Source of the DNA: a bacterium
Lineage (GTDB): Bacteria; SAR324; NAC60-12
Direction of reading: 5' to 3'
Length of the DNA stretch: 64,000 nt
Assembly: GCA_965209155.1 (NCBI GenBank)
Contig: OZ242383.1
Location: 4,194,201 to 4,258,200, forward strand
Shown piece after piece: positions 17,592 through 43,370 of this stretch. The notes beneath the pieces were generated by a model, which saw only the letters and a program-made list of their open reading frames with translations, had not been told where the DNA came from and did no database searches. A program made the translations under genes and the position numbers. The stretch's first letter is position 1. The number at the start of each line of letters is the position of its first letter.

Positions 17592-17642
17592 AAAACTCCT
17601 GTTATCGTACCATTAATAAAAAGGGATTTGTAGGCCATGTGA

Positions 17643-17990
17643 TCAATCATCAATAAACTCCCAACAAGTTGTGTTCGTTACTGCTTCAAATACATCACAA
17701 GCAAGTATTCTTGATGAACCGCCTTTATCATCTTCAATACTTAAATGATACTCTTCTCCATTCTTACATTTAACTGCAATATATAATGCAGCAGTATTCC
17801 AATCAATCCTTCTTATAAAATATTTCGTTACTGCACAAGAGACCCCAGACGCTGGACTAGCGAGCATAGTTAGAAATCGAATTTATTCTTTTTCGCTATC
17901 TCCATAAATTTGATAAAACCAGCGATTTGCATGAATTTGAGAAAACGATAATAAAATTGAAATCAACAGATAACAAATAATCTTTTTCAT
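17643..17990 (-). pseudogene. Secreted-protein gene interrupted by an in-frame TAA stop
   Basis: A 35-codon ORF starting at ~17990 encodes a signal peptide (MKKIICYLLISILLSFSQIHA) and is in the same frame as ORF 17643..17867, separated by a single TAA. Confidence 0.4.
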
Positions 17991-18009
17991 AACACATTCT
18001 AAAGGAACT

Positions 18010-18556
18010 GAAACGTCCAATACCTACTTGAAGTTTCAAACTTTCAGGCCTGACTCCTTTTTCATTATCACCGGATTCACGCTTTTTACTTAATGAGCAA
18101 TCATGTTCCTCCCTGCTCTCTTCCTCTTTGAGGACGGATCATTCATCAAGAGGCTCGAGTTTATCAACTACCGGAGAATGAATTAACCCGAGTTCGACAT
18201 AAATCTTCAATAATAGGAGTATCCTGGCGTTTATGTCATTCCGGGCGAAGACCCGGAATCCAGGTTTCAGTCTGGCTGCATACCTCTGGATTCCTGGTCA
18301 AGCCTGGAATGACACGTTTTCTCTGCAGTCACGAAAGTCGAGTGAAGCCCGCGCGATGATTGACCTGTTGGCATTCGATTGGAAGTCCGCAACAATTCGG
18401 GAGGTCGGAAACGTTTTCAATCGAGATGATTAAACGATTAGGTTTGGAGTGCACCGCTTGAGACCACGATTGAAGGAATCCGAAAGTCTCCAAATTCAAT
18501 TAGAGGAACTGAAACATCAAATACTTGCTTGAAGTTCCAAACTTTCAAACCAGACC
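18010..18556 (+). repeat. Dispersed repeat, element X copy 2 (with tail of an additional copy at its 5-prime end)
   Basis: Aligns with 16141-16640 along nearly the full length; the tail motif CTTGAAGTTTCAAACTTTCAGGCCTGACTCC is present at both ends. Confidence 0.75.
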
Positions 18557-18713
18557 TTGGTACTCACCAATCCCCGCGATATCTGACCGGGTGGAACGAT
18601 ATTCCTTCATCCGGCATTATTTCCAATTTATTTAAATGTTCCTATTATTGAATCAGTCTTTTTATCATAGACCTCAATTGTAGTTGCCAAAATAAACATT
18701 CTGAAATTTTCAT

Positions 18714-19040
18714 CTAATTCACTTCACCTGATAAAATAATTATACAATCATTACTACTGAATAGTCCTGAACGGCAATTTTTATTAAAATAATCCATAAA
18801 ATTTTTTCGGCCAATTCGGCTTAATATATCGGCACTTGCTCGAAGTGTATATCCATCAGATTGTACATCAAAATAATCATTTACTGATAATTTATCAGCA
18901 AAATAACTTGTTGTTCCTGCAAATTTAATCTCGTATCCTATTGACGCAAAATCAAAGGTATAGTCCTTTAATGTGGTTCTAAAAGGTTCGGCTTGAATAA
19001 TATTTACAAAAATTAAACCGATTAAAATATTTAAAGACAA
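18714..19040 (-). CDS. Small secreted hypothetical protein
   Basis: 108 aa with N-terminal signal peptide (MSLNILIGLIFVNIIQA). Confidence 0.45.
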   Translation of the reverse strand: MSLNILIGLIFVNIIQAEPFRTTLKDYTFDFASIGYEIKFAGTTSYFADKLSVNDYFDVQSDGYTLRASADILSRIGRKNFMDYFNKNCRSGLFSSNDCIIILSGEVN

Positions 19041-19104
19041 ATAAACGTTTCATATTGTATTCTCCATATTGAAGGTATTTCAAAATCGATCCAAAATTAT
19101 CAAT

Positions 19105-19455
19105 TCAAACTGAGATTGATTCTTTTTTTTTCTTAGGTTCAATTATTGCCAGGACACCACCTATAAAAGCTAAAACCATAAAAATCGCTACTATCGTACC
19201 ACCTAAAATTGCACCTACAATCGCACAAAGACATGTTATAATTCCCGGGATTCGGCTGTTTGAAGTTAAAGTAATTGCTCCCATAACTATGGTAAGAAAA
19301 GAAAAGAGAACTCCACCCCAGCCGAGACCGATTACTGTATTCGCCCCTTCCGCTTGAAAGGCACCGCCTATTCCACCTATGAATAAAGTTGCACCGGCAG
19401 CAAATACACTGAAAATACCTGCAATTATTGCAATAATTCCTCCTGCTTTTCTCAT
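19105..19455 (-). CDS. Glycine-rich small integral membrane protein
   Basis: 116 aa, three to four hydrophobic segments rich in small-xxx-small glycine motifs, lysine-rich C-terminal tail. Confidence 0.5.
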   Translation of the reverse strand: MRKAGGIIAIIAGIFSVFAAGATLFIGGIGGAFQAEGANTVIGLGWGGVLFSFLTIVMGAITLTSNSRIPGIITCLCAIVGAILGGTIVAIFMVLAFIGGVLAIIEPKKKKESISV

Positions 19456-19525
19456 ATCATCTCCTTTCTGTTATTTTTGCGTCAATAGAATCCATTCGAT
19501 TCTGCCAGAAGTTCTACTTCACGAA

Positions 19526-19822
19526 TTATTTTCTCCTTTTGAAATCTTCTTTGATGACCCGGAACACGTATCTCATCTCGTCCTCAGACTTTTTCCCGAA
19601 ACGTTTTGCCATCCTGTAACCGAGATTAGTCCACGTCAATTTTTTTAATGCCAGTTTCCCAATTTCTTTTTTATTTAAAATTAGATTATTCCAAGAAAAA
19701 ATAAAATTTTCTAAATGCTTATTAGTTGGATTTTTGTTCGTAACATCCTTTACAAACTCTTTATCCAAAGCCAAGCGTTCCAGTTCAGCCAACACTTGCA
19801 GGTGAGTCACTTCTCGATTCAA
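19526..19822 (-). CDS. Small protein, member of local paralog family (LTW-x-LGY-x-M motif)
   Basis: 98 aa; shares a conserved C-terminal core with ORFs 20760..21020 and 21020..21286; a fragment of its 5-prime end is repeated at ~20490-20600. Confidence 0.5.
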   Translation of the reverse strand: MNREVTHLQVLAELERLALDKEFVKDVTNKNPTNKHLENFIFSWNNLILNKKEIGKLALKKLTWTNLGYRMAKRFGKKSEDEMRYVFRVIKEDFKRRK

Positions 19823-19834
19823 TTTGACCTCTTT

Positions 19835-20326
19835 TCACAATTCATTTTTTACTATTTCCTGAATAATTTTTTTAAATCTCTTAAATTCAATCTTTAATTC
19901 TTGTATAGTTTTATCTAATTCAACCATGTTCTTTCTGGAATTCATTTTAAATTCTTCATACGTCATATCAGGATCATATGTAGGTGATAATCGGACACTA
20001 ATAAAAAGAAGAACAAATGAACAAATAAAAACAACAAATGCTCGCTTTCGAGTTGGCAAGTACAAACGAGAAATGGGGTACAACATACAAATAAACGATA
20101 TTATACTAATGATCATAAAGACAAATACTAAAATAATACTTATTTCTTCCATTGTAGGTGGTAATTGGACACTAATAAAAAAAAGAACAAATGAACAAAT
20201 AAAAACAACAAATGCCCGCTTTCGAGTTGGCAAGTACAAACGAGAAATGGGGTACAACATACAAATAAACGATATTATACCAATGATCATACAGACAAAT
20301 ACTAAAATAATGCTTATTTCTTCCAT
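19835..20326 (-). CDS. Membrane protein with internal tandem duplication
   Basis: 163 aa; a ~58-aa unit with a transmembrane helix (MEEISIILVFV...RKRAFVVFICSFVL) occurs twice, from a direct ~186-bp DNA tandem repeat; opposite-strand ORF 19926..20594 judged a shadow. Confidence 0.45.
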   Translation of the reverse strand: MEEISIILVFVCMIIGIISFICMLYPISRLYLPTRKRAFVVFICSFVLFFISVQLPPTMEEISIILVFVFMIISIISFICMLYPISRLYLPTRKRAFVVFICSFVLLFISVRLSPTYDPDMTYEEFKMNSRKNMVELDKTIQELKIEFKRFKKIIQEIVKNEL

Positions 20327-20759
20327 AAATTACCTGTTTTTATTACAACCTAAATTGAGCGATTCTTTTCAAGAAATGGATTTTTCAGATGATTATTGTG
20401 CCCAAGGAATCGAATCATTGAGATATAAGCATTTGATCATCAAATTCATGGAAGTTCGGGTCAGAATGGATCTCAAGTTGATGTTTTCGGCTGTGGGGAA
20501 ACTTCATTTCTCATGCTATGCACACACTCATCCTCAGCCAGGCGTTCCAGTTCAGCCAACACTTGCAGGTGAGTCACTTTTCGATGCATTTTGACCTCTT
20601 TTCACAATTCATTTATTAGTATTTCCTGAATAATCTTTGCTTCACGGCATTCTTTATCTCGTGTTACTTCTTCCAAGCGCTTTAATTCTTTTATCGTGGA
20701 GACAGCGAAAATGACTTATTTCCCGGTGAATTTGAATTCCGTTCTTTTCAGGTATATAT

Positions 20760-21020
20760 TCATGATTTATCTGAATATTCATCAGCCAGGATGCGATAGG
20801 CATAGTCAATGTCTTCCGGATCTTGAGTTTTAAAATACCTGCCCATTTCGTAACCCAGACTGATCCACGTAATATAATTTAAATCAACCGTATCCAATCT
20901 TTTCCCTTTCCAGCCATCACGGAATGCTGATTGTTTATCCTCCGTAGGTGGCTCACGATTATCGGCAAATTTTTCCTCTTGTAATTCCCGAAGACGATTT
21001 AATACATTTTGATATCTCAT
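20760..21020 (-). CDS. Small protein, paralog family member
   Basis: 86 aa; NLTWxSLGYEMG...DPEDIDY...RILADEY core shared with its tandem neighbour. Confidence 0.5.
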   Translation of the reverse strand: MRYQNVLNRLRELQEEKFADNREPPTEDKQSAFRDGWKGKRLDTVDLNYITWISLGYEMGRYFKTQDPEDIDYAYRILADEYSDKS

Positions 21021-21286
21021 TATTCCCTATTATTTTTTGAATATTCATCAGCCAGGATGCGATAGACATAGTCAATATCTTCCGGATCTTGAGTTTTAAA
21101 ATACTTGCCCATTTCGTAACCCAGACTTTTCCACGTGAGGTTATTCGGATTTAATCTTGATATTCCTTTTCCAAACCATGCTTGTCGAAATGCTGATTGT
21201 TTATGCTCCGTAGGTGGCTCACGCTTTTCGACAGGCTTTTCCTCTTTTAATTCCTGAAGACGATTTAAGATTTCTGAATATTTCAT
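21020..21286 (-). CDS. Small protein, paralog family member
   Basis: 88 aa; tandem with 20760..21020, overlapping stop/start (translational coupling). Confidence 0.5.
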   Translation of the reverse strand: MKYSEILNRLQELKEEKPVEKREPPTEHKQSAFRQAWFGKGISRLNPNNLTWKSLGYEMGKYFKTQDPEDIDYVYRILADEYSKNNRE

Positions 21287-21383
21287 AATTCTCCTTTATC
21301 TTTAAGATTTTTCCTTAGGATTTTAAGCAGATATAAAACGTTTTGATATCTGCTTGGTACTCCTTAGAATTAAGATTTGAATA

Positions 21384-21700
21384 TAAAAAAACACTTGAAA
21401 AAATTTGCAAAAGGAGATTGAGCTGGGTTAGTATTTTTGATTGCCGAAAGGAGGATATAAAAAAAGCCCGTCTTCCCTCATGGGAAAATTCTTGAAAAAC
21501 ATTGCCGTGTTTCTCAAGGATATGATGGGTGTCCTGCTCCTCCTTTGGCCTTCTTGCTTTCCTGTCATTTCCTCCCTTTCATCGATGACCGGGCGGCCAA
21601 CTCACTGGGTCTTTCCCTTTTTACCAGGTTATCGATGACGCCAGCAAACTTGGTTTCCGTGTTGGTGAACCTTTTGTTAAGGAAAAAGAAGTTAAGAAAT
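21384..21700 (+). repeat. Dispersed ~320-bp repeat, element Y copy 1 (promoter-like)
   Basis: Shares with 22915-23250 and 25317-25650 a TTGCAA-N17-TAGTAT-like motif followed by an 11-bp inverted repeat CCAAAGGAGGA ... TCCTCCTTTGG about 85 nt apart. Confidence 0.65.
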
Positions 21701-21960
21701 CTGGTTCAATTTATCTTTCAGATCCGATACCTGTTCCGATGAAATTGGAATTGAAAATTCCCCATAAGGAATATTTGACATGGGTACAGGATGAGAGAGT
21801 GGCTTCCTGGGCCGAATCAAAAGCATTTTAGAATTTTCTTCATCTTCTTTAATACTGACATCTGCTTCAAATTTAACATTCAACGTTACTTGTGAATTTT
21901 TATCCATATTTATCTTCTTTTTTTTTGAAATCGATATTGATTAATTTTTCTCTGTACTTT

Positions 21961-22200
21961 TGAAGGAGTTGAGTAAAACCCGCACGATGATTGGCTCGTT
22001 GGCTTTCGATTGGAAGTCCGCAACGATTTGGGAGATCAAAAAATTTGCAATCGAGATGATTCTATGATCAGCATTGGAATTCGTCGGTTGAGACCAAGAT
22101 TGAAGGAATCCGAGGGTCTCCAATTTCAATTAGAGAAACTGAAACGTCAAATACTTGCTTGAAGTTTCAAACTTTCTGGCCTGCCCCCTTTTCAATATGA
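21961..22200 (+). repeat. Element X copy 3 (3-prime ~240 bp only)
   Basis: Aligns with the 3-prime half of 16141-16640. Confidence 0.65.
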
Positions 22201-22213
22201 AAACTAAAGAGAT

Positions 22214-22891
22214 TTAAAGACCTGTAATGAATAGAATGAAATAACCATCATATTTAATTAATTTTTCAATTCCATAAGTAGGGATGCCTATAGTAAAATC
22301 AGAACGAACCTCCATAGAATTTGTTTGAGTAGGAACGTCATTAATATAAACACCAAAATAACCGATTGATAGAGGTCTTTCATACGGAATTATTTTGAAT
22401 CGGATTTTAAAATCTGATAATTGAATAAATGATGCAGCAGATGATTCAAAAAAACTTTCCATTTTCACACGTAGTTCGGGGGGGAAATGTAAACCTAGCG
22501 TCCTAACGCCTTCATCATTAGGGAAATAAGTAATATTAATTATTTCTTCATCAACATATTTACCATCCCTTTCTTTATCTAAAAAAGCGGGAATCGAAAA
22601 AGAGACCATATGTTTAAATAGTCCTTTTTCTTCACATCCTAAATATTCTGCCCCTTTGAAAATAAAAGGAATTTTTGCTTGTAATTCAAAAACTGTATCT
22701 TCTGGCAAATTACTTTTGCTCTTAGTACATCCCTGAACTTCAATATTCATAATTCCATTAACCTCTATCGGATCTGTCCCTTCTTTAGCAAAATTAGCGA
22801 GGTCGATTTCCATAAATAAATCTAGATCACAACCTGAAATCAAAACTACAATTAATAACAAACCCAATATGCTGAAAATTGACTTTTTCAT
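22214..22891 (-). CDS. Hypothetical lipoprotein (paralog of 23258..23911)
   Basis: ORF 22214..22903 trimmed to MKKSIFSILGLLLIVVLISGC (lipobox); GGAG SD upstream. Confidence 0.55.
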   Translation of the reverse strand: MKKSIFSILGLLLIVVLISGCDLDLFMEIDLANFAKEGTDPIEVNGIMNIEVQGCTKSKSNLPEDTVFELQAKIPFIFKGAEYLGCEEKGLFKHMVSFSIPAFLDKERDGKYVDEEIINITYFPNDEGVRTLGLHFPPELRVKMESFFESSAASFIQLSDFKIRFKIIPYERPLSIGYFGVYINDVPTQTNSMEVRSDFTIGIPTYGIEKLIKYDGYFILFITGL

Positions 22892-22914
22892 ATCAAACTC
22901 CAAATATAATTTAT

Positions 22915-23250
22915 CAAATAATACTTAAAAAGTTTGCAAAACAGGATTGACAGGGTTAGTATTTTTGGTTGCCAAAGGAGGAAATAAAAAAGCCCGTCCT
23001 CCCTCTTTGGGAATTTCTTGAAAAACATTGCCGTGTTTCTCAAGGATATGATGGGTGTCCTGCTCCTCCTTTGGCCTTCTTGCTATCCTGTCATTTCCTT
23101 CCTTTCCTTAAAGACCGGGCGGTAAACTCACCGTGTCTTTCCCTGTTTACCAGGTTATCGATGTTGCCAGCAAACTTGGCTTCCATCTTTGTAAATCTTT
23201 CGCAATCTCTTCCGCTTTCCGATGAATCATTTCAGAAATTTTCTGTCATT
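22915..23250 (+). repeat. Element Y copy 2
   Basis: See 21384-21700; lies between the two paralogous lipoprotein genes. Confidence 0.65.
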
Positions 23251-23257
23251 GAAATTG

Positions 23258-23911
23258 TTAAAAATTGTATGATTGAGTACTGAATACGACAAATTCCTTC
23301 ATTTCATTTGATAACAAAACCCTTGTCCCGTAATGGGGTATTCTTACAGAGAACTCAGAATTCAGTGTAGTATCTATAAATTGGTATGGTTTATCATTCA
23401 AATACACTCCCATTCCTTTTACATTCAATGGAGTCAAATCGGGTAAGATTTGGAATTTTATATTAATATCATCCATTTTTATTTCATCAGACGCAGATAT
23501 TAACAAATTCAATTTCCCTTTTAATCCTGGAGGAAATGAAAAAATTAATTCTCTTTCACCATTTTCAAGTTTAAAATATTCTAAATTTGATATTTCATCA
23601 TCCACTGGTTTGTCATTGTCATTATTATCAATATAAACTGGAATTTCAAATAACAAGTAATAGTCAAAACCCGAACGATCACAATCCTCATATTTTGCCC
23701 ATTTGAAGACATAAAGTAATTGTTCTTTTAATTTACTGACATCATCACTATCACACACATTAACTTCCACTGCCAATCGACCTTTTATAAGAGTTGATTT
23801 ACCATCATCAGTAAATAGATTGAGATTAACTGGTATATCAATAAAAATATCACAACTGGCTATAACTAAAGATATTACTAGTAATTTTATACAACAAACA
23901 ATCTTCCTCAT
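23258..23911 (-). CDS. Hypothetical lipoprotein (paralog of 22214..22891)
   Basis: ORF 23258..23956 trimmed to MRKIVCCIKLLVISLVIASC (lipobox); shares domain order and several motifs with the neighbouring lipoprotein. Confidence 0.5.
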   Translation of the reverse strand: MRKIVCCIKLLVISLVIASCDIFIDIPVNLNLFTDDGKSTLIKGRLAVEVNVCDSDDVSKLKEQLLYVFKWAKYEDCDRSGFDYYLLFEIPVYIDNNDNDKPVDDEISNLEYFKLENGERELIFSFPPGLKGKLNLLISASDEIKMDDINIKFQILPDLTPLNVKGMGVYLNDKPYQFIDTTLNSEFSVRIPHYGTRVLLSNEMKEFVVFSTQSYNF

Positions 23912-24106
23912 AAGACATTCTCCATGAAAATAATTGCAAATGAATATGGTCAGCATAGTAAAAATTGAAATTGTTCTTGAAGCTATTCAATTTGAAGAAA
24001 AAATTATTTTTGGCTGAGCTGCTTGAAATCGGATTCGCCCAACGTTTAGCTTCAATTGTTTTTTTTTGGAAAAATCCCCAGCTCAATCAACAAACTATCA
24101 TCTCCT

Positions 24107-32386: not shown

Positions 32387-32648
32387 TGGGAGAATAGAGT
32401 CTGGCGCGTTATCCTCTCGGACCAGGCCTCGGAATTAATTATAATGATAATTGCTCCAAAAAATGCATTAAGCTAACACGAACTCGACAAACTGCCAAAC
32501 AGAACTGCGTTTCTTCATTATTTATTGCTTTGCATCGCTGGTGAGGATCGGTTATATTTTTACCAACACCGACGTGGCAAGGATCCCGTCGGGAGCGGAG
32601 CTTTCTAATCGTGGAAAAACGCGTCACGCGTAACAAGGGGATGGTTGT

Positions 32649-33125
32649 ATGAAACTCGATACGCGAGAATTGAGAAACACGCTGGGGTGTTTTGCTACGG
32701 GCGTAACCATCGTCACCACCGCCCCGGAAGGCCTTGACCCGATCGGAATCACGGCCAATTCCTTCGCCTCCGTCTCATTGGAACCTCCCCTCGTTTTGTG
32801 GAGCCTGGCGCGGGATTCGTCCTCTTACGAGACCTTTGCGATCGCCACCCACTACACGGTCAATATCCTCCGTGAATCCCAAGTGGCGCTATCCGTCCGA
32901 TTCGCGGATCCCGACAACCACCGTCACCTCAACGGACTTTCCTGGCGATATGGAGAGAACGGATGTCCGACCATACCGGGTTCTCTGGCTACCCTCGAAT
33001 GCGAAATCCGCACGCGTATTGATGGGGGAGATCACGTGATCCTGCTGGGACGGGTGTTACGATTTGAACAGGGAGAAGGCAAGCCCTTGCTGTTCGCGCA
33101 AGGTAAATATGCCAACCTGGCGTAG
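32649..33125 (+). CDS. Flavin reductase family protein (FMN-binding split barrel)
   Basis: 158 aa; GCFATGVTIVTT...PPLVLWSL pattern typical of HpaC-like flavin reductases. Confidence 0.75.
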   Translation: MKLDTRELRNTLGCFATGVTIVTTAPEGLDPIGITANSFASVSLEPPLVLWSLARDSSSYETFAIATHYTVNILRESQVALSVRFADPDNHRHLNGLSWRYGENGCPTIPGSLATLECEIRTRIDGGDHVILLGRVLRFEQGEGKPLLFAQGKYANLA

Positions 33126-33155
33126 GGATGGACGACTCTCCAACCCTCGAAGATT

Positions 33156-33617
33156 TCAATCGCCATCATAACCGTGACGACGGGCGTTGTCCAAACAGGC
33201 TTCCCGGGTGGGAAAACCGGTATGAGAAGACCCGACAATCTGGTCATCCAGGTCGGATCGACGCCAGCGCCATTTCTGCGAAGTGTCCTGGTAAAAATTC
33301 CAATGATCCCGGAAAGAGATGCCTTCTTTTCTGAACTGGTTGATGGCTTTACCGAAATGCTGGCTCAAATCTTCCCATGCTTCTTCAAAACTGCTGGCTA
33401 TTTCCTGCCATGCGGCCTTGCTTCCGATTTTTTCCAGGCTTCCTCGAGCCGTTTCCCATTTATTCTCCAGGACGGACAAATCCTTCTTCACCCGTTCCTG
33501 GGCCTCCGTCAACATGGTCTGGGAAATCACGGTCAATTTTCCTATCCGCTCCTTCATGTTGTGCAAGACCGTTTCTTTTTCCTTTTTAATTTTATCTTTT
33601 GCTTCGTGCTCACTCAT
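33156..33617 (-). CDS. Coiled-coil protein with C-terminal YegP/DUF1508-like domain
   Basis: 153 aa; C-terminal WNFYQDTSQKWRWRRSDLDDQIVGSSHTGFPTREACLDNARRHG resembles the YegP (UPF0339) repeat. Confidence 0.5.
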   Translation of the reverse strand: MSEHEAKDKIKKEKETVLHNMKERIGKLTVISQTMLTEAQERVKKDLSVLENKWETARGSLEKIGSKAAWQEIASSFEEAWEDLSQHFGKAINQFRKEGISFRDHWNFYQDTSQKWRWRRSDLDDQIVGSSHTGFPTREACLDNARRHGYDGD

Positions 33618-33853
33618 AAATGCTCCTGGTTCTGATGATTATCCGAGAATCCCGTTTTTTCAACGAATGCTGACATTTTATCAAATCCCCTGGGAATTCC
33701 AAGCATGAACTTCATAAGAACGGAGACGCTTCATGGACCAATGCCGAATGCTCTTCCTGAAATCGGTTACCTCGCCTTGTCCTCCCATCAGCACGGTCGT
33801 TCTGTCCTCCCATCGCGAACCTCTCCTTGTGCTCCCATCGGCATCGTCGCCTT

Positions 33854-34075
33854 GTCATTCCTGGCTTGACCAGGAATCCAGTGTTGGTAAGGATTTCCTG
33901 GATTCCGGGTCTGCGCCAGGAATGACACACTCCTGGATTCCCGATTGCAGGGGCCAGGACATTTTCGTTCCCCTGGATTCCGGGTCTGGGCCAGGAATGA
34001 CTCACTCTTAGATTCCTGGTCTGCGCCAGGAATGACTCACTCTTGGATTCCGGGTCTGGGCCAGGAATGATACTC
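33854..34075. repeat. Tandem array of REP-like hairpin units (about 6 units, mixed orientation)
   Basis: Units such as GTCATTCCTGGCTTGACCAGGAATCCAG and CTGGATTCCGGGTCTGCGCCAGGAATGAC. Confidence 0.8.
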
Positions 34076-34094
34076 TCCCGAAAACGTCCTTTAC

Positions 34095-34913
34095 TCAGCT
34101 TTTTTCCCGGGTCACCCGGATAAAAGGTTGTACCAGCAATCCGGGTAATTTCAGGGAACCGGGTTCACGGAACTCTTTCAGCCCGATGCTCATTCCTTCA
34201 TGACCCGCTTCCGGTTGATCCCGGTAGGTGCCGAACAAACGGTCCCACCATGGAAAATTGAATCCATAGTTGCTGTCGGTCTCGTATGGAACGACGGAGT
34301 GATGAACCCGGTGCATGTCCGGAGTGACAATGAATTTCCGCGCGATACGATCCACGTTCAATGGAAGAAAGAAGTTGCTGTGATTGAACATGGAGGAGCC
34401 ATTGAGCAGGATTTCAAAAATCAAGACGGCCAGGACCGGGGCGCCGATGAGAATTATCGCCACTATTTTGATCAACAGGGAAAGCAATATTTCAAAGGGA
34501 TGGAAACGCACTCCCGTCGTCAAATCAAAATTCAAATCCGTATGGTGGACCCGGTGCAGTCTCCAACAAAGCGGTATTTTGTGGAAGAGCACGTGCTGCC
34601 CATAGATCAAAAAATCCAGGAAAAGAATAGCAACCACAATTTTGATGGGTTCCGCTGCCTCCACTTGTTGCAGGAGACCCCACTGCCGCTGTTCGGCAAG
34701 GTGGGCGACCACAACGGGAGTGATCCAACCCAGAAACCAGACCAACAATGCGTTCAACAGCGTCAATCCCAGGTTGCTGCGCCAACGGGATGCTTTGGAA
34801 ACCGTCGGAACCAGGCGAGGCTTCAGTAATTCACCGAGGGCCAGTATGAAAAAAAGCCCCAAAAAGCAGCCCAGGCGGATTGCGCTTTGATGGTCCGTGA
34901 TATAGATTTCCAC
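34095..34913 (-). CDS. Fatty acid hydroxylase / sterol desaturase family membrane protein
   Basis: 272 aa; histidine boxes (HRVHH and HRVHHS) in a membrane protein. Confidence 0.75.
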   Translation of the reverse strand: MEIYITDHQSAIRLGCFLGLFFILALGELLKPRLVPTVSKASRWRSNLGLTLLNALLVWFLGWITPVVVAHLAEQRQWGLLQQVEAAEPIKIVVAILFLDFLIYGQHVLFHKIPLCWRLHRVHHTDLNFDLTTGVRFHPFEILLSLLIKIVAIILIGAPVLAVLIFEILLNGSSMFNHSNFFLPLNVDRIARKFIVTPDMHRVHHSVVPYETDSNYGFNFPWWDRLFGTYRDQPEAGHEGMSIGLKEFREPGSLKLPGLLVQPFIRVTREKS

Positions 34914-35168
34914 TGCGTTCTTTTCAATTTGGCAAGAATGTCGATGAATACTAAATATCGAACCGATCCACCTTTGTCAAAATCCACCCCTGTGGAGAAT
35001 CGACTCGATTGGCTACTTCGTATTTCTTCATGATAGCATTTCCACTCAGAATTGTCGCAAGAGTGATGATCTGGAAAATTTTCTTGAATTTTTTTTAAAA
35101 ATCACCAATAGTAATTCTTCTAAATTCTAATCTCGAACTCGGGTTAAATACATAGGAATCGACGAAAA

Positions 35169-36617
35169 ATGGTAGGAATCACTTCGTTTGGCGGTTACAT
35201 CCCCCGTCTCCGTTTGACGCGCAAATCCATCGTGGACGCGCACTTGTGGTCGGACCCTTCGCTCCGTGGTAAAGCCAGGGATGAACGTTCCATGTGCAAT
35301 TGGGACGAGGATTCGGTGACGATGGGTGTGGAAGCGGCCCGTGATTGTTTGTCGACAGGAGTGGCAAATCCCGATGCGATTTATTTCGCCTCGACCAGTA
35401 TGCCTTTCCAGGACCGGCAAAATGCGGGAATCCTGGTAGAGGCTTTGACTCTTGGAGAAAATATGGCCTCCCTGGACGTGACGGCTTCCCAACGGGCAGG
35501 CACTTCGGCCTTGATGCAAGCGCTCGCTGCCGTGAAAGGGGAAACCTACCGCAACATTATGGTAGTCGCTTCGGAACACAGGAAAACCAAAGCAGCCAGT
35601 CCCCAGGAGTTGACCTTCGGAGATGGAGCGGCTGCCGTCACCGCAGGCCATGAACGGGTCCTCCTCGAATACGTGGGTGGGCATTCCACCACGGTTGATT
35701 TCGTAGACCATTTCCGTGGAGAAGGGCAATCTTACGACTATGCCTGGGAAGAGCGCTGGATCCGGGACGAAGGGTACGGAAAACTCATACCCCGCGCCAT
35801 CGACGAAGCACTGGCCAAAACCAATTTAACGTCCTCCGCTGTCTCTCGTTTCGTCCTTCCCGGCGCCATCCGCCGCGCGGTGGACTCGGTCGCCAGAAAG
35901 ACGGGCATTTCCATGGAATCCGTTTGTGACAACTTGAGCAAAACTTGTGGAGACACCGGGGTGGCGCATCCCTTTCTCATGCTTTTACATGCCCTCGAAG
36001 AGGACCTTCAAGCAGGCGAAATCATTATGGTTGTTGGGTTTGGCCAGGGCTGTGACGTGTTGATTTTCCGGGTCAGTGAACACCTCGCTTCCTTTCAAAA
36101 AGCAGGAGGCATTCAAGCTTCCCTCTTGAATCGCCAGCAAGAGAACAACTACCAACGCTTCCTGGCTTTCAACGGATTGATTGCCCTGGAAAAAGGTATG
36201 AGGGCGGAGCGGGACAATAAAACCGCCTTGAGCGTACTCTACCGCAAACGGGATATGCTCCTCGGACTGACAGGCGGCCTCTGCTCAAAATGCGGCACTC
36301 CTCAATTTCCGCGCAGCGAAGTCTGCGTGAATCCGGATTGTAACGCGCCGCATTGTCAGGAACCCTACAGTTTCGTCAATGAAACCGCCACCATCCAAAG
36401 TTGGTCTGCGGACTATTTGACCTATACCATCGATCCCCCCTCTCATTATGGTATGATAGTGTTTGACAAAGGCGGGCGATTTATGACAGATTTTACGGAT
36501 GTTCAGGTGGGTGAAGTCGAAGTCGGTATGCCAGTCAGGATGGTTTTCAGAATCAAAGGTTTTGACGAACGCCGGAATTTTGTAAGTTACTTCTGGAAAG
36601 CGGTACCAATCCGTTAA
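35169..36617 (+). CDS. HMG-CoA synthase-like (thiolase-fold) protein fused to DUF35 zinc-ribbon/OB-fold domain
   Basis: 482 aa; N-terminus MVGITSFGGYIPRLRL resembles archaeal-type HMG-CoA synthases; C-terminus has Cys4 ribbon (CSKCGTPQF...CVNPDC) followed by an OB-fold-like region. Confidence 0.7.
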   Translation: MVGITSFGGYIPRLRLTRKSIVDAHLWSDPSLRGKARDERSMCNWDEDSVTMGVEAARDCLSTGVANPDAIYFASTSMPFQDRQNAGILVEALTLGENMASLDVTASQRAGTSALMQALAAVKGETYRNIMVVASEHRKTKAASPQELTFGDGAAAVTAGHERVLLEYVGGHSTTVDFVDHFRGEGQSYDYAWEERWIRDEGYGKLIPRAIDEALAKTNLTSSAVSRFVLPGAIRRAVDSVARKTGISMESVCDNLSKTCGDTGVAHPFLMLLHALEEDLQAGEIIMVVGFGQGCDVLIFRVSEHLASFQKAGGIQASLLNRQQENNYQRFLAFNGLIALEKGMRAERDNKTALSVLYRKRDMLLGLTGGLCSKCGTPQFPRSEVCVNPDCNAPHCQEPYSFVNETATIQSWSADYLTYTIDPPSHYGMIVFDKGGRFMTDFTDVQVGEVEVGMPVRMVFRIKGFDERRNFVSYFWKAVPIR

Positions 36618-36644
36618 TTGATCATCATTGAAAAAGGAGAAAAA

Positions 36645-37841
36645 ATGGCAAGTGGAATAAAAGACAAAGTGGCCATCCTGGGGATGGGATGTTCAAAATT
36701 TGGAGAGCGCTGGGACGCAGGAGCGGATGAATTGATGGTGGAGGCATACCTGGAAGCTATCTCGGATGCGGGGATCGAAACCTCGCAACTGGATGCCGCC
36801 TGGTTTTCCACTGCCATTGAAGACGTGCATGTCGGTAAATCCGGCCTGCCGCTTTCCATGGCGCTCCGGTTGCCCAATATTGCCGTGACCCGCGTGGAAA
36901 ATTTTTGCGCCAGCGGATCGGAGGCCTTCCGGGGCGCGGTCTATGCGGTGGCTTGCGGGGCAGCGGACATCGCCCTTGCCCTCGGAGTCGAAAAACTGAA
37001 GGATACCGGTTATGGAGGATTGCCTGCCAGTGGAACCGGCACGCTCTCCCCCCAGTGGCAAGCCACGGGTTCCGCCCCGGGGAATTTTGCTCAATTGGCC
37101 AGCGCTTATCGAGCAAAACACGGAGTGAAGAAAGAAGATCTCAAGCAAGCCATCGCCCATGTCTCGGTGAAGAGTCATGCCAATGGCGCAAAAAATCCGA
37201 AAGCGCATTTACGGAAAGAGATCACGGAAGAACAAGCAATCAACGCTCCGATGATCGCCGAGCCCCTGGGGCTCTTTGATTGTTGCGGGGTCAGCGATGG
37301 CGCGGCGGCGGCAATTGTCACCACTCCCGACATCGCCCGTAGTCTGGGAAAAGAAAATATCATCACCGTGAAGGCCCTGCAACTCGCTTTGTCCAGTGGA
37401 AGTGAAACGGGTCACAATTCCTGGGATGGCAGTTATTTTCATACCACCCGGATTGCGGCGAAAAAAGCATACGAGGAAGCCGGGATTGAAAATCCTCGTG
37501 AAGAAATCGACATGTTCGAAGTACACGATTGCTTTTCCATCACCGAAATGGTGACCATGGAAGACCTTTATATTTCCCCGGAAGGCGGAGCGATCAAAGA
37601 TGTGATGGAGGGATTCTATGATGCGGACGGCCAAATCCCCTGCCAGATAGACGGTGGGTTGAAGTGTTTCGGTCATCCTATTGGAGCTTCCGGCCTGCGC
37701 ATGCTTTATGAAATGTATTTGCAACTCAATGGTCGCGCCGGGAAACGTCAATTGGCCAGTCCTGCGATGGGACTGACGCACAATTTAGGGGGTGCGCCCC
37801 ACCAGAACGTGGCAGCGATTTGCATTATCGGCGCAAGCTGA
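36645..37841 (+). CDS. Thiolase family protein (SCP-x type / DUF35-associated acetyl-CoA acetyltransferase-like)
   Basis: ORF trimmed to ATG at 36645 (GGAG SD); N-terminus KDKVAILGMGCSKFGERW and C-terminal GHPIGASGLRMLYE thiolase signatures. Confidence 0.8.
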   Translation: MASGIKDKVAILGMGCSKFGERWDAGADELMVEAYLEAISDAGIETSQLDAAWFSTAIEDVHVGKSGLPLSMALRLPNIAVTRVENFCASGSEAFRGAVYAVACGAADIALALGVEKLKDTGYGGLPASGTGTLSPQWQATGSAPGNFAQLASAYRAKHGVKKEDLKQAIAHVSVKSHANGAKNPKAHLRKEITEEQAINAPMIAEPLGLFDCCGVSDGAAAAIVTTPDIARSLGKENIITVKALQLALSSGSETGHNSWDGSYFHTTRIAAKKAYEEAGIENPREEIDMFEVHDCFSITEMVTMEDLYISPEGGAIKDVMEGFYDADGQIPCQIDGGLKCFGHPIGASGLRMLYEMYLQLNGRAGKRQLASPAMGLTHNLGGAPHQNVAAICIIGAS

Positions 37842-37884
37842 TTCCTGCAATTCAGTTCCTGGTTACCGATTAATTCGAGACATC

Positions 37885-39441
37885 GTGTATCTCACGCAAG
37901 GGCTTAAGAACGCAATTCAACTGAAAGGTAATGCGGTTGCCACCATCGACGGCAAGCGTAGACGGACCTGGAAGGAACTGGGGACTCGCGTAGCGAGATT
38001 CGCGGGAGCTTTGAAAGCGTTGGGGCTGTCTGAAGGAGGCCGCGTTGCCATTTTGTCTTTGAATAGCGATCGCTATTTCGAGTATTACTACGCCGTGCCT
38101 TGGGCCGGAGGTGTTTTTGTCCCCTTGAACTTCCGGCTCGCTCCTGCCGAACTGGTATTCCTCTTGAATGATTCCGGCACGGATATTCTTTTGGTGGACG
38201 ACGAATTCGCTTCAATGCTGCCCCTGATGGTGGAAAAATTGGAGACGGTACGCTGTATCGTTCGTATCAGCGACCAAACCACGCAAGAAGGCGCCTTCGA
38301 TTACGAAACGATCCTGGGTGCTGCCGATCCCATACCGGATGCGCTTATCGGGGGTTCGGAGCTGGCAGCAATCTATTACACGGGTGGAACCACCGGACTG
38401 CCCAAGGGGGTCATGCTCAGCCACGACAACCTGGTTTTCAATGCCCTCAACGCCCTGATCGTATCCGACTATTGTTCGGATTCGCTTTATTTGCACACCG
38501 CCCCCATGTTCCACATGGCGGACGCCACTTCCGTCTATGGTCTCACCATGGTACAGGGAGTCCACGTTTTTATACCAAAATACAGTTCTGAAACCACTTT
38601 GCAAACGATTGAGGAGGAAAAGATTACCAATGTGACGCTGGTACCCACCATGATCAATATGTTGGTGAACTTTCCACGAGTCGAAGACTATGATTTGTCA
38701 TCCCTGAAAAGAATCTGGTATGGCGCTTCTCCCATGCCCACGGAGATTTTGAAAAAGTCGATGGAAGTCATGCCGGGATGCCGCTTTGCCCAAAGTTACG
38801 GGATGACGGAGCTTTCTCCAATTGCAACGATACTCGAAGAAAAATATCACCAGTTGGAAAATCCTTCTCCCAGGATGAGATCCGTGGGAAGGGCCGTCCC
38901 TTCCGTCGAAATACGCATCGTGGACGAGCAGGGCCGGGAAGTCCCTCGAAATACGGTGGGCGAAGTGGCGGTACGCGGGGACAATGTCATGCTTGGCTAC
39001 TGGAACCGGGCTGAAGAAACGGCCAATGCCCTGCGAGGGGGTTGGATGCGCACCCAGGATTTGGGTTACATGGATGAAGATGGTTTTATTTTTCTCACCG
39101 ACCGGATGAAGGACATGATCATTTCCGGAGGAGAAAACGTTTATTCCGCGGAGGTGGAAAACGTTATCTATGAATACCCTGCGGTCGAATCATGCGCCGT
39201 CATCGGAATCCCGGATGATCAATGGGGTGAAAAAGCGCATGCCGTCATCACGCTCAAAGCAGGTCATTCCGCAACGGAAGCGGAACTCATCGCATTCTGT
39301 AAGGAACGGCTGGCAGGCTACAAATGTCCGCGCAGCGTGCGCTTTCAAAGCGAACCTCTGCCTCTCAGCGGGGCAGGTAAAATCCTCAAGAGCCAGCTGC
39401 GCGAACCCTATTGGAGAGGGAAAAAAAAGCGTGTGAATTAA
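37885..39441 (+). CDS. Acyl-CoA synthetase (AMP-forming ligase)
   Basis: AMP-binding motif YTGGTTGLPKGVMLSH; start placed at in-frame GTG 37885 (listed ORF begins at GTG 37792, which overlaps the thiolase gene); start uncertain. Confidence 0.75.
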   Translation: MYLTQGLKNAIQLKGNAVATIDGKRRRTWKELGTRVARFAGALKALGLSEGGRVAILSLNSDRYFEYYYAVPWAGGVFVPLNFRLAPAELVFLLNDSGTDILLVDDEFASMLPLMVEKLETVRCIVRISDQTTQEGAFDYETILGAADPIPDALIGGSELAAIYYTGGTTGLPKGVMLSHDNLVFNALNALIVSDYCSDSLYLHTAPMFHMADATSVYGLTMVQGVHVFIPKYSSETTLQTIEEEKITNVTLVPTMINMLVNFPRVEDYDLSSLKRIWYGASPMPTEILKKSMEVMPGCRFAQSYGMTELSPIATILEEKYHQLENPSPRMRSVGRAVPSVEIRIVDEQGREVPRNTVGEVAVRGDNVMLGYWNRAEETANALRGGWMRTQDLGYMDEDGFIFLTDRMKDMIISGGENVYSAEVENVIYEYPAVESCAVIGIPDDQWGEKAHAVITLKAGHSATEAELIAFCKERLAGYKCPRSVRFQSEPLPLSGAGKILKSQLREPYWRGKKKRVN

Positions 39442-39453
39442 TAAAAAATCGCA

Positions 39454-40149
39454 TCAATCCTGCTTCACGCTTTCCAGGTTGATGGCGCTACTGAGATCGA
39501 CTGCCTCCAACTCCACCTGGTGCAGGTCCACTTCTTCCAAATCCGTTCCTTTGAGATCCGCGCCGAGCAGTCTGGCGCCGCTGAGGTCGGCTCTTCTCAG
39601 GTAGGTACCGGTCAGGTTGGCTCCTCGCATATCCGCATGAGCCAGGTAAGCGTCGCCGAGGTAAGCCTGCCTGAGATCGGCTTGCTGCAGGTTCGCCCCT
39701 TTGAGGTCCGCATTGCTCAAATTGATTTTGTTGAGGTCGCTGCCCTCGAGGTTGGCCTCTTCGAGATTCGCATTGTTCAAATCGACTCCAACGAAATGCA
39801 CGCCGCTGAGATTGCTGCCCTTGAGGTTGGCATAGCGAAGATTCGTGTTTTTCAGGATGGCGCGCCTCAAATCCGCGTGGGCGAGATTGGCTTTGCGCAG
39901 GTTCGTGCTTTCCAGGTTGGAATCACTCAAATTGGCTTTACGCAGGTCGGCATGGTTGAGATCGGTCTGGCTCAGGTTGGCCCCTTGAAGGTCGGCCTCC
40001 TGCAGGTTCGCTTCCTGGAGGTTCACCTGCCGCAAGTCCGCTTTTTTCAAATCGAGACCACTGAAATCGGCTCGACGTCCTTCCACTTTTTTCGTCTCGA
40101 GCCATCGTTGGTGGGCATCGACCATGACTTGGAACTCTTTTTTTTCCAT
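39454..40149 (-). CDS. Pentapeptide repeat-containing protein
   Basis: 231 aa made almost entirely of A(D/N)LxxANL-type pentapeptide repeats. Confidence 0.85.
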   Translation of the reverse strand: MEKKEFQVMVDAHQRWLETKKVEGRRADFSGLDLKKADLRQVNLQEANLQEADLQGANLSQTDLNHADLRKANLSDSNLESTNLRKANLAHADLRRAILKNTNLRYANLKGSNLSGVHFVGVDLNNANLEEANLEGSDLNKINLSNADLKGANLQQADLRQAYLGDAYLAHADMRGANLTGTYLRRADLSGARLLGADLKGTDLEEVDLHQVELEAVDLSSAINLESVKQD

Positions 40150-40199
40150 AGGGCTCCTCCTCCGCTCTCTTGAGGGTTAATCGTGTGGGAACCTGCTTT

Positions 40200-41180
40200 T
40201 CAGACCGTCAGGATGATCTTGCCGATATTTTCATTCGCTTCGATCGCCGTATGGGCGGCTGCCACCTCCTCCAAGGGCAGCACTCGATCGATGACCACTT
40301 TCAGTTCCCCCGTTTCAAACTTGCTTAAATAGGATTGCGCGAATTCCCGGGTCAGTGAAATTTTGTAATCGATGGGGCGATTCCGTAAAGTGGAGCCCAT
40401 CAATTTGATACGTTTTCGCATCAGGAGACCCAACTCGAACGATTCCACTTGCGCGCCACCCAGCATGGCCAGGAAGACGAGACGACCATCCTGCGCGATA
40501 CAGCTCAGGTTTTGCCGGAAATGGGGTTCTCCAACAAAATCGATAATCACGTCCGCGCCATGACCTCGGGTCGCCTCCAAAACCGCCTCCGCGAATCCGG
40601 AGTCTCGATAATTGACGGCCAGGTCGGCCCCGAGTTCGCGGCAGACTCGTAACTTGGCTTCGGAGCCTGCCGTGGTCATCACGGTACATTGCTCCACTTT
40701 GGCGGTTTGGATCGCTGCGGTTCCCACTCCGCTGGCCCCTGCATGAATCAAGACCTTTTCCCGGGGATGCAATTCTCCCAGCCAGATTAGGGATTGGTAG
40801 GTGGTTAGGTACGTTTCAGCAATTCCGGCTCCCTCTTCAAAGCTCAGGTTTTCGGGAACCGGCATTGCCATTTCCTCGGGAACAGCCACGAATTCCGCAT
40901 AACCCCCGCCCGGTAATAAGGCGAAAACACGGTCACCCTTAGTCCATTTTTTGACCTTTGCCCCCACGCTTTCCACTTCGCCTGCCATTTCCAATCCCAA
41001 AATAGAACTGGCACCCGGGGGAGGCGGGTACATTCCCCGGCGCTGCGCCGTATCGGCGCGATTGATGGCAGTGGCCTTGACTTTGACCATGATTTCGTTT
41101 TCCTCGCATTCCGGCAACGGCGCATCACCCAAATAAAGTTGTTCGGGACCTCCGGGTTCTTTTAACAAAACGGCTTTCAT
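40200..41180 (-). CDS. NAD(P)H:quinone oxidoreductase (zinc-independent MDR family)
   Basis: 326 aa; MDR-family pattern with nucleotide-binding HAGASGVGTAAIQ. Confidence 0.8.
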   Translation of the reverse strand: MKAVLLKEPGGPEQLYLGDAPLPECEENEIMVKVKATAINRADTAQRRGMYPPPPGASSILGLEMAGEVESVGAKVKKWTKGDRVFALLPGGGYAEFVAVPEEMAMPVPENLSFEEGAGIAETYLTTYQSLIWLGELHPREKVLIHAGASGVGTAAIQTAKVEQCTVMTTAGSEAKLRVCRELGADLAVNYRDSGFAEAVLEATRGHGADVIIDFVGEPHFRQNLSCIAQDGRLVFLAMLGGAQVESFELGLLMRKRIKLMGSTLRNRPIDYKISLTREFAQSYLSKFETGELKVVIDRVLPLEEVAAAHTAIEANENIGKIILTV

Positions 41181-41280
41181 ATTAATCTTTGAATATTTAT
41201 ACAGGTATTTGAGTTTTTTAAATTATTACGAAAAATCCCAGAATCGCGTCTGGTATTTCAAGGCTTCAGGAGTCGAGTGA

Positions 41281-43008
41281 TTAAAATTGCGAGGAGACTT
41301 CCATGAACGTGAATTTTTTTGAAGTGACCACGTCCAACACGACGGGGACCTCACTCCCCTCAGTGTCTTTCAAGGTAGTTTCCAGGATTCCGGGTTCTTC
41401 GATGCGAAATCCACGACAACCCAAACTTTTTGCAATGCCGGCATAATCGATGTCTGAAAATTCGGAAGCGATCTTTCGCTCCCCTTGCCCACTGCGAACC
41501 CATCCCAAGGCGCTGTTGTTGAAGATGACAACCGTGATGGGAATATTTTCCTCACAGGCCGTGATCAGTCCGTTCATCGACATGGGAAAACCTCCATCCC
41601 CGCACACTGCCACGGCACGTCGAGTCGGATTTGCCAGTTTCGCTCCCATCGCAGCGGGGATTGCGTATCCCATGCCTCCGGTGGCCGCGGGTGATATCAG
41701 GGTTCCGGCCTGTCGTGTTTGAAACCAGTGGGTCATGAAGAGGCGATTTTCACCGGCATCGCAAGTCACGATCGCGTCATCGGCCAGTCCATTGCGGATC
41801 TCGTTGATGATGCGTTGTGGCAGCAAGGGAACTTCTTCGGAAATCGCTTCCTGGCTGTCGAAGAAACCATATTCTTTCCGGTTGCTTGCTTGTCGGGTTT
41901 TCCTTGCCTGGAGCATTTCCCCAGGGGGCGGTCCCAGTTCATGGATACGCCGGCAAAGCTGTTGCAGCGCCAGTCTGGCGTCTCCGATGACGACATGATC
42001 ACAGGGGAAAGTCCAACTGGCGTTTTTCGCTTCGATGTCCAACTGGATGAAATTTTGACGGGTCGCGTCGAGAAATCGAGGATTTTGACCCGCCGTATCA
42101 CTCGGTGATAATTTCGAACCGACTACGAAAATCGTATCGGCGGCCGCCATCGTCCGGTTGGCTACGCGTTGGCCGAAATTACCGAAGACGCCAAGCGCCC
42201 GGGGATGGTTTTCAGGGAAGACCCCTTTGCCGGAGGCGGTGGTGGCCACCGGAGCGGCAATCAACTCAGCCAGTTCCTGCAGGGGATCATAAGCGCCGCT
42301 GATGCGCACTCCATTTCCTGCGAGAATAACGGGAGATTCGGCAGACAACAAGGCCCGGGCGGCGTTCTCGATACTTTCCGCATCGGCGGGCGCCGGGGGT
42401 GGTGGTAAATAAGACCGGCCTGCATACAGTTTCGGCACGGAGTCCGGACCCACCCGGCTCTTCAGCGCCGTTCCATGATAAAGCAATGCCACCGGCCCAC
42501 GCTCCCCCGTCAGGGCATGCTTGATGGCCAGTTGCGTACTTTGCACGGTTTCAGCCGGCCCATGTGGAAGAAAGGTCGCTTTCGTCAAGCCTTTGAATAC
42601 CGATTTCGCATCCCATGTACGGTAATCGCCGGTTCCGGATTGATAAGGAGCGTGGTGGGAAAAGGGCGCCCCGTCGGACAGGTCGGTTAATATCAGCAAG
42701 GGCGAACTGCCGCAAAAAGCCTCCAGGGTTCCAAGCATGCTGTTGGAAAGCATGAACATTCCCTGCCCTACGGCGACTGCGGGCTTTCCGGTGAATCGTC
42801 CATACACTTCCGCCATGATGCTTGCCAACGTTTCCTGTCTCACGAGGACCGTGCGGATCGTGGACCGATGATCGTGCAGCGCATTGAATAAAATACCCGT
42901 GTTGCCGCCCGGGATGCCAATTACCAGGTCCACTCCCATCTCTTCGATGGCACGTATGATCGCTTCGCTGACCGGTACTTCTTCCTCCAACAATAGTTTA
43001 TTTCCCAT
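41281..43008 (-). CDS. Thiamine pyrophosphate-dependent enzyme (acetolactate synthase large subunit-like)
   Basis: 575 aa; N-terminal TPP pyrimidine-binding region and C-terminal GDGGF-type TPP-binding motif (VCGDGGFPMSMNGL). Confidence 0.8.
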   Translation of the reverse strand: MGNKLLLEEEVPVSEAIIRAIEEMGVDLVIGIPGGNTGILFNALHDHRSTIRTVLVRQETLASIMAEVYGRFTGKPAVAVGQGMFMLSNSMLGTLEAFCGSSPLLILTDLSDGAPFSHHAPYQSGTGDYRTWDAKSVFKGLTKATFLPHGPAETVQSTQLAIKHALTGERGPVALLYHGTALKSRVGPDSVPKLYAGRSYLPPPPAPADAESIENAARALLSAESPVILAGNGVRISGAYDPLQELAELIAAPVATTASGKGVFPENHPRALGVFGNFGQRVANRTMAAADTIFVVGSKLSPSDTAGQNPRFLDATRQNFIQLDIEAKNASWTFPCDHVVIGDARLALQQLCRRIHELGPPPGEMLQARKTRQASNRKEYGFFDSQEAISEEVPLLPQRIINEIRNGLADDAIVTCDAGENRLFMTHWFQTRQAGTLISPAATGGMGYAIPAAMGAKLANPTRRAVAVCGDGGFPMSMNGLITACEENIPITVVIFNNSALGWVRSGQGERKIASEFSDIDYAGIAKSLGCRGFRIEEPGILETTLKDTEGSEVPVVLDVVTSKKFTFMEVSSQF

Positions 43009-43370
43009 TTTTTTCCTTTCTGTTGTTTTTACTTACGTGCGAAGTATTGAAGTATAAATGATTGCAGGAAAAATTGTCAATATTTACGGAGTCTTATTTT
43101 CAGAAAAATGCTTGACCTCGATTATCGGGTACGATAGGCTTTGACGGCAAGTTAAAAACTGATGTCAGGTGAACAAATTTTGCATTAAGAGCGCCTATGC
43201 GCATTCCAGGAAACGGTCAATTTGCATTAGCGGGACAAGCTCCTTTGCGCCTTTGTACCTTCTTTCTGAAGAGCTTCAGGAATAAAATCGATCTTCTGCA
43301 AGTTCCATACGCCTGACATGAGTTAAAAAATGTTTTTTCAAGTCATTCAGTCAATTCACGGGAGAATATT

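Follow-up and report, generated by a model that had tools for sequence, protein, structure and literature searches.

The window analyzed here is a 64,000-nucleotide stretch of contig OZ242383.1 from a bacterium of the SAR324 lineage (assembly GCA_965209155.1, positions 4,194,201 to 4,258,200). Within it, three co-directional open reading frames (ORFs) on the + strand fill positions 35169-39441 (Table 1): a protein in which a domain resembling 3-hydroxy-3-methylglutaryl-coenzyme A (HMG-CoA) synthase (HMGS) is joined to a DUF35 module (35169-36617, 482 aa), a thiolase (398 aa, with an ATG at 36645 preceded by AAGGAG and an end at 37841), and an AMP-forming acyl-CoA ligase. The fusion and thiolase genes are separated by 27 nt, the thiolase and ligase genes by 43 nt. 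The coordinates given in a preliminary description of this DNA, made by a model from the sequence, were confirmed except for the start of the ligase: the longest ORF begins at a GTG at 37792, overlapping the thiolase gene, and the start was refined to a second GTG at 37885 (518 aa, end at 39441), which is conserved in the closest relative (L081), where in-frame stops upstream of it exclude the longer form. The ligase gene is probably co-transcribed with the other two; a promoter scan gave no match above chance, and a terminator scan of the operon no signal above chance.

The first gene does encode, as proposed in that description, a thiolase-fold HMGS-like domain fused to a DUF35 zinc ribbon and oligonucleotide/oligosaccharide-binding (OB) fold: Pfam and Protein Data Bank (PDB) matches to both fall on the single 482-aa ORF. 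An assembly artefact can be set aside because more than 100 cluster representatives of the family are collinear with the fusion over residues 1-482. The N-terminus aligns from residue 2 with the HMG-CoA synthase (HMGCS) of M. thermolithotrophicus (6esq_I), and Pfam detects ACP_syn_III_C (1.3e-11). In phmmer searches of the PDB the N-terminal domain matches PhlA-type subunits best (9skh_A, 2e-30; 5m3k_A, 5e-24), followed by archaeal HMGCS (6esq_I, 8e-20). Foldseek, used with an AlphaFold2 monomer model of the fusion (predicted local distance difference test, pLDDT, 76; predicted template modelling score, pTM, 0.77), gave a ranking in agreement with this one, with PhlA-type proteins (9skh, 5mg5), archaeal HMGCS (target-normalized template modelling score, TMt, 0.85) and MucA as the best matches.

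The resemblance to HMG-CoA synthase does not extend to the active site. The tetrad E82/C114/H238/N270 of 6esq_I, mutation of which abolishes HMG-CoA synthesis (PMC12960953), aligns with T76/Q108/P231/D262 in the fusion; the preliminary description had made intact catalytic residues in this domain the check on its proposal, and all four are replaced. Among 121 sequences (this one and 120 homologs of at least 57% identity) the four positions are held by T in 119, Q in 119, P in 114, and E or D in 117. In 105 full-length representatives of only 30-49% identity, the nucleophile position is variable (L in 48, Q in 16, R in 9, M in 7, and others), neither a Cys at this position nor a Glu at the E82 position occurs in any of them, and T76 and S107 are kept in 85 and 87, respectively. 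Since no Cys or Glu is left even among these distant representatives, loss of the tetrad is ancestral to the whole fused family. The best NCBIfam matches of the fusion are the archaeal HMG-CoA synthase equivalogs, both below their cut-offs (NF003274, 160 bits vs a cut-off of 244; TIGR00748, 98 vs 353). A working HMG-CoA synthase was rejected on these two grounds, the lost tetrad and the scores, and the HMGS-like domain is, as predicted from its aligned residues, a pseudoenzyme, catalytically inactive as a synthase. The mevalonate-like route that had been considered for the locus is excluded by the loss of the tetrad; the equivalog scores point the same way, and no mevalonate genes were found in the annotated neighborhoods.

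The C-terminal part of the fusion has kept the features expected of a DUF35 protein. Pfam places zf-ChsH2 at residues 367-391 and OB_ChsH2_C at residues 404-461 (6.5e-9), and the module matches the archaeal DUF35 protein 6esq_E (7e-6). All four zinc-ribbon cysteines (C372, C375, C386, C391) are retained in 120-121 of the 121 sequences, and they are conserved among the distant representatives as well. In the monomer model, pLDDT falls below 50 for residues 338-364, in the linker preceding the module; this linker is nevertheless the best-conserved segment of the subfamily (mean identity 77%, vs 68% for DUF35 and 57% for the HMGS-like domain).

The second gene belongs to the SCP2/archaeal-type thiolases (NF004810, PRK06157: 697 bits vs a cut-off of 403; Pfam Thiolase_N and Thiolase_C_1), consistent with the earlier proposal of an SCP-x-type thiolase followed on the same strand by an AMP-forming ligase. 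Its catalytic motifs are intact: CASG with C88, HDCF with H294 and C296, and GHP with H343. Of 66 orthologs, 62 agree at these positions, and the motifs are kept in all eight annotated thiolases checked, from five paralogs and three close relatives. Among PDB matches, the archaeal acetoacetyl-CoA thiolases (ACATs) 7yvy_A (4e-59) and 6esq_A (1.6e-55) rank above SCP2-thiolase type 1 (6hsj, 2e-44) and BbsB (4.5e-43), with much weaker matches to Ltp2 (6ok1_A, 1.8e-17) and to PhlC (1.5e-16, C-terminus only); the protein is thus far closer to the archaeal enzymes than to any of the other four. It is most likely the sole catalyst of the pair.

The third gene is an acyl-CoA ligase by Pfam (AMP-binding, 6e-86, with AMP-binding_C) and by NF004837 (530 bits vs a cut-off of 476). 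Its best PDB matches, 8weu and 8wev (1e-104), are to a fatty-acyl/feruloyl-CoA synthetase, a likeness that does not fix the substrate. The preliminary description called it a dedicated ligase; it is instead lineage-specific, present in this organism and in a relative whose fusion protein is 87% identical. In a tblastn survey of 85 related loci, a ligase lies within 10 kb of the fusion-thiolase pair in only three, two of which are records of that same relative, and its candidacy as a conserved partner was ruled out.

The closest functional precedent is a recent one. A survey of bacterial loci in which genes for HMGS, ACAT, and DUF35 lie close together found 1,030, of which 1,001 lacked secondary-metabolism genes (PMC12960953; Nat Commun, January 2026). 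One of them, PfACAT/HMGS-DUF35 of P. fluorescens, combines a fused HMGS-DUF35 protein lacking the E-C-H-N tetrad with an ACAT that has the Cys, HDxF, and GHx motifs; it forms neither HMG-CoA nor acetoacetyl-CoA from acetyl-CoA but cleaves acetoacetyl-CoA thiolytically, and an H294Y substitution almost abolishes this activity (PMC12960953). Judged by its sequence, the present locus has every feature described for that system: an HMGS-like domain without the tetrad on the same polypeptide as DUF35, here of 482 aa; an adjacent thiolase with Cys, HDxF, and GHx, the HDxF histidine being residue 294 in both; and no polyketide synthase (PKS) or nonribosomal peptide synthetase (NRPS) among the neighbors, as judged here by Pfam scans of neighboring genes across the window. 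It differs in the additional ligase downstream, and in its origin, an uncultured lineage for which a SAR324 metagenome-assembled genome (MAG; fusion 75% identical) is the nearest named relative. A literature search for fitness or omics data bearing on the physiological role of such pairs found only the 2026 study.

From these comparisons, the products of the first two genes are probably the two subunits of a 3-oxoacyl-CoA thiolase complex like PfACAT/HMGS-DUF35, acting thiolytically and built around a non-catalytic scaffold. In such a complex, C88 of the thiolase would serve as the acyl-enzyme nucleophile, with HDCF as acid/base and GHP as oxyanion hole, cleaving a 3-oxoacyl-CoA with CoA (3-oxoacyl-CoA + CoA -> acyl-CoA + acetyl-CoA). 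The fusion protein would form the other half of a hetero-oligomer, its DUF35 module acting as the clamp to the thiolase, a part played by a free DUF35 protein in the archaeal complex and in PhlACB and MucABC; the pseudo-synthase, if those complexes are a guide, could contribute to a shared CoA chamber. In archaea the synthase step pulls an unfavorable condensation forward, and as that step is gone here the thiolytic (retro-Claisen) direction would be expected. In this organism and its closest relative, the ligase may activate a free acid for a pathway ending in thiolysis. We infer complex formation, physiological direction, and the link to the ligase, and the chemistry would be that of the published homolog. 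The locus had previously been proposed to be a Claisen or retro-Claisen module; of these, retro-Claisen activity on a CoA thioester is plausible, while Claisen condensation of the HMG-CoA synthase type is refuted by the loss of the tetrad.

The earlier description also related the locus to the thiolase/HMGCS/DUF35 complex of archaea, and this evolutionary link holds. The same three modules are present, with a homologous thiolase carrying the same catalytic motifs, a common HMGS fold, and a zinc ribbon and OB fold; the DUF35 protein is a separate subunit in archaea and fused to the HMGS-like domain here. Without the tetrad, however, neither HMG-CoA synthesis nor channeling towards mevalonate is to be expected. 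This bears on the alternative in which the pair acts biosynthetically, the thiolase condensing an acyl-CoA with acetyl-CoA and a downstream enzyme pulling the product on, an arrangement known from the mevalonate complex and the ketothiolase (KT)/DUF35 fatty-acid synthase of archaea. The thiolase is, after all, nearest to archaeal biosynthetic ACATs, and archaeal KT/DUF35 pairs can act in synthesis if coupled to a reductase (bioRxiv 10.1101/2024.07.05.601840). Here, though, the enzyme that would do the coupling has lost its tetrad, neither the operon nor the Pfam-annotated neighborhoods of three relatives contain a reductase or a gene of the mevalonate pathway, and the P. fluorescens homolog made neither acetoacetyl-CoA nor HMG-CoA from acetyl-CoA (PMC12960953). 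A biosynthetic role, which would require coupling to some other downstream enzyme, is on balance unlikely.

The fusion is not unusual. At E<=1e-30, a representative library clustered at 50% identity contains 507 representatives of the family, one member of which is known biochemically (PMC12960953). Most of the best 150 representatives are 465-500 aa long and collinear over the entire query. Four (P0122, P0123, P0171, and P0269) have 722-911 aa, the extra length being a C-terminal stretch distinct from the partner thiolase; a triple fusion was sought in these four, and none has a thiolase domain. A genome scan returned at least 585 loci, the best 80 of which were used for analyses of context. 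These are at most 64% identical to the fusion. Most belong to Gammaproteobacteria (Pseudomonadales MAGs) or Alphaproteobacteria (Parvibaculum, Rhizomicrobium, Micropepsaceae), and one belongs to SAR324; P. fluorescens is not among them. The thiolase gene lies downstream of the fusion gene on the same strand in 66 of the 80, directly adjacent in most, with approximately 1-7 kb inserted between the two in a group of alphaproteobacterial loci (L011, L013, L030, L037, L038, L060, L061, L069-L071, L077). All-against-all clustering of ORFs from the 80 loci found no conserved third gene beside the fusion (80/80) and the thiolase (66/80).

Across the best loci the thiolase is 70-84% identical and the fusion 51-64%. 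Ratios of nonsynonymous to synonymous substitution (dN/dS), computed between the window and the 87%-identical relative at a dS of about 1, near saturation, are 0.038 for the thiolase, 0.040 for the linker and DUF35 module together (residues 336-482), 0.095 for the HMGS-like domain, and 0.111 for the ligase. Together with the pattern of conservation, these values fit a catalytic thiolase with a constrained non-catalytic partner, for which the DUF35/linker region would be the key surface. They also bear on the suggestion that the fusion-thiolase pair is a function-less “evolutionary intermediate” (PMC12960953): purifying selection of this kind argues that it is functional rather than decaying.

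A related possibility is that the old synthase pocket has been re-purposed, either as a decarboxylase resembling the Gln-containing ketosynthase-like domains and chain-length factors (KSQ/CLF) and supplying an enolate for condensation, or as a second site for substrate binding or specificity. The Gln at the former Cys position in nearly all close homologs is suggestive in this respect, as are the retention of T76 and S107 in most of the distant ones and the low dN/dS of the HMGS-like domain. On the other hand, the His and Asn that a Cys-to-Gln decarboxylase would need are also gone (P231, D262), the Cys position varies at family level in the manner of a non-catalytic site, and the P. fluorescens homolog had no such activity on acetyl-CoA (malonyl-CoA was not reported; PMC12960953). 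Decarboxylation or a second binding site therefore seems improbable. A broader version, that the pair belongs to the core metabolism of Proteobacteria and SAR324 as an enzyme under strong selection, with the pocket (T76, S107, Q108) in a new role, and is not an “evolutionary intermediate” at all, is likewise unlikely; if it were true, the ligase in the operon of this lineage would point to the physiological acid.

The closest relatives of the HMGS-like domain in both sequence and fold raise another possibility, that the pair is a Friedel-Crafts C-acyltransferase, CoA-independent or acetyl-CoA-dependent, working on a phenolic or tetramate acceptor. PhlACB (5M3K/5MG5, 9SKH) and MucABC (9VBO/9VBT) share with this locus a tripartite architecture and an HMGS-like subunit that has likewise lost the tetrad and is inactive. 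In these systems, however, DUF35 is encoded by a separate gene within a secondary-metabolite cluster, and the thiolase-like subunit has lost HDxF and gained acceptor-binding residues (the motif is absent from PhlC and MucB; PMC12960953), whereas HDCF is intact here. The match to PhlC is weak and confined to the C-terminus, there is no PKS or NRPS nearby, and hundreds of genomes carry the pair as part of their core, making this assignment very improbable.

BbsAB (7PXP) and other DUF35-associated SCP2-type thiolases pair an HDxF thiolase with a DUF35 zinc-ribbon partner acting on a CoA thioester in a beta-oxidation-like pathway, much as proposed here. Hardly credible, all the same, is that the pair is itself a benzoylsuccinyl-CoA thiolase of the BbsAB type or a Ltp2/Sal-type retro-aldol lyase. 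Enzymes of both kinds have the SCP2-type thiolase fold and a DUF35 association, and BbsB matches at 4.5e-43, but the thiolase scores only 154 bits against a cut-off of 750 for the BbsB equivalog (NF053628), BbsA is a free DUF35 protein without an HMGS-like domain, the Ltp2 match is weak, and the surroundings showed no bbs or steroid genes. To our knowledge, Ltp2/Sal aldolases lack the nucleophilic Cys that the thiolase here has (C88). The PhlACB, BbsAB, and Ltp2/Sal assignments thus each failed on a defining feature. The ibuprofen ipfABDEF cluster likewise combines a CoA ligase, an SCPx-type thiolase, and a DUF35 protein, and is not known to include an HMGS-like domain.

Several points weigh against a thiolytic complex with a purely structural partner, the reading preferred here. 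Homology is what argues for complex formation, and the likeness to PfACAT/HMGS-DUF35 is one of described features. Cleavage of acetoacetyl-CoA in vitro may be a side activity, saying little about the natural substrate. The near-invariance of T76, S107, and Q108 within the subfamily may mean that the pocket has a function beyond scaffolding. The pair sits mostly among housekeeping genes without pathway partners, so that a beta-oxidation role is not established for this subfamily, and conservation of the ligase only in the nearest relative makes its functional coupling to the pair uncertain.

Features of the locus are collected in Table 1.

Table 1. Features of the fusion-thiolase-ligase locus (positions in the 64,000-nucleotide window).
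Feature	Position	Strand	Basis or remark
AT-rich intergenic region	34914..35168	.	Separates the fusion gene from the divergent FA_hydroxylase gene; presumed operon promoter, by position only
HMG-CoA-synthase-like (PhlA-like) thiolase-fold domain, residues 1-335	35169..36173	+	PDB phmmer, Foldseek; predicted synthase-inactive
Linker / N-terminal helical segment of DUF35 module, residues 336-365	36174..36263	+	Model pLDDT, conservation
DUF35 module (rubredoxin-like zinc ribbon and OB fold), residues 366-482	36264..36614	+	Pfam, 6esq_E match
SCP2/archaeal-type thiolase, most likely the catalytic subunit	36645..37841	+	NF004810, PDB matches, motifs
AMP-forming acyl-CoA ligase, 518 aa, lineage-specific third operon gene	37885..39441	+	Pfam, NF004837

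The 87%-identical relative has in common with the window only a syntenic block at 32645-43034, of approximately 79% nucleotide identity, and its flanks are wholly different. The block holds genes for a flavin reductase, an sll1863-like protein, a membrane FA_hydroxylase (divergent from the fusion gene), the fusion, the thiolase, the ligase, a pentapeptide-repeat protein, a PIG3-type quinone oxidoreductase, and an acetolactate-synthase-like thiamine pyrophosphate (TPP) enzyme. Relatives with 75% (the SAR324 MAG) and 71% fusion identity have only the fusion-thiolase pair in common with the window; in L084 and L085 the pair (35169-37834) aligns at 73-74% nucleotide identity and the rest of the 64 kb does not align. 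The high identity of the pair across SAR324, Alphaproteobacteria, and Gammaproteobacteria could reflect either extreme constraint or horizontal transfer of a two-gene cassette.

In the SAR324 MAG, genes for a MaoC hydratase, a CoA transferase, and an acyl-CoA dehydrogenase (ACAD) are arranged divergently to the pair, with a short-chain dehydrogenase/reductase (SDR) nearby. Chromids of Sphingomonas, Variovorax, Azoarcus, Niveispirillum, Paraburkholderia, and Novosphingobium carry paralogs of 40-49% identity in operons such as SDR-MaoC-fusion-thiolase-ACAD-CoA transferase, or beside genes for ring-hydroxylating dioxygenases and for AMP-binding proteins, contexts that are catabolic and resemble beta-oxidation. 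Such neighbors, in the paralogs and in the SAR324 MAG, count in favor of the thiolytic reading. Near the pair in the 85 related loci, ACAD genes were found in nine, CoA transferases in five, and SDRs in 10. The other recurrent clusters in the 80 loci are shadow ORFs or lineage-specific housekeeping genes, the latter resembling recG, glmS, glmU, cysNC, galU, and hemF (assigned by eye from the sequences). In Parvibaculum and relatives (L019-L080), genes for an aminoglycoside-phosphotransferase-like protein (approximately 338 aa) and a small protein (approximately 127 aa) lie approximately 6 kb downstream of the fusion-thiolase pair, on the opposite strand. They occur in 25-26 of the 80 loci and are reminiscent of LvaA/LvaB from 4-hydroxyacid catabolism.

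Elsewhere in the window, positions 16000-24000 have a GC content of 0.33-0.38, vs approximately 0.52 elsewhere, and few long ORFs, and are possibly a foreign island. Two paralogous DUF7424 ORFs lie in this low-GC stretch (22214-22903 and 23258-23956, both on the - strand). Just upstream of it are two adjacent ORFs of the BREX BrxC/BrxD ATPase family (7661-8920 and 8937-9887, both on the - strand), which may be a split or duplicated defence ATPase.

The fusion-thiolase architecture is common and has already been described, and to that extent the locus adds little beyond the 2026 publication. Its consequences for annotation are practical: pipelines label members of the family “3-hydroxy-3-methylglutaryl CoA synthase,” “OB-fold domain-containing protein,” or “acetyl-CoA acetyltransferase,” and the first of these, taken at face value, would falsely imply an entry point to the mevalonate pathway in bacteria without one. 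The family is large and under strong purifying selection, and the present locus, bearing a ligase, offers a practical route to the substrate by way of the specificity of that ligase.

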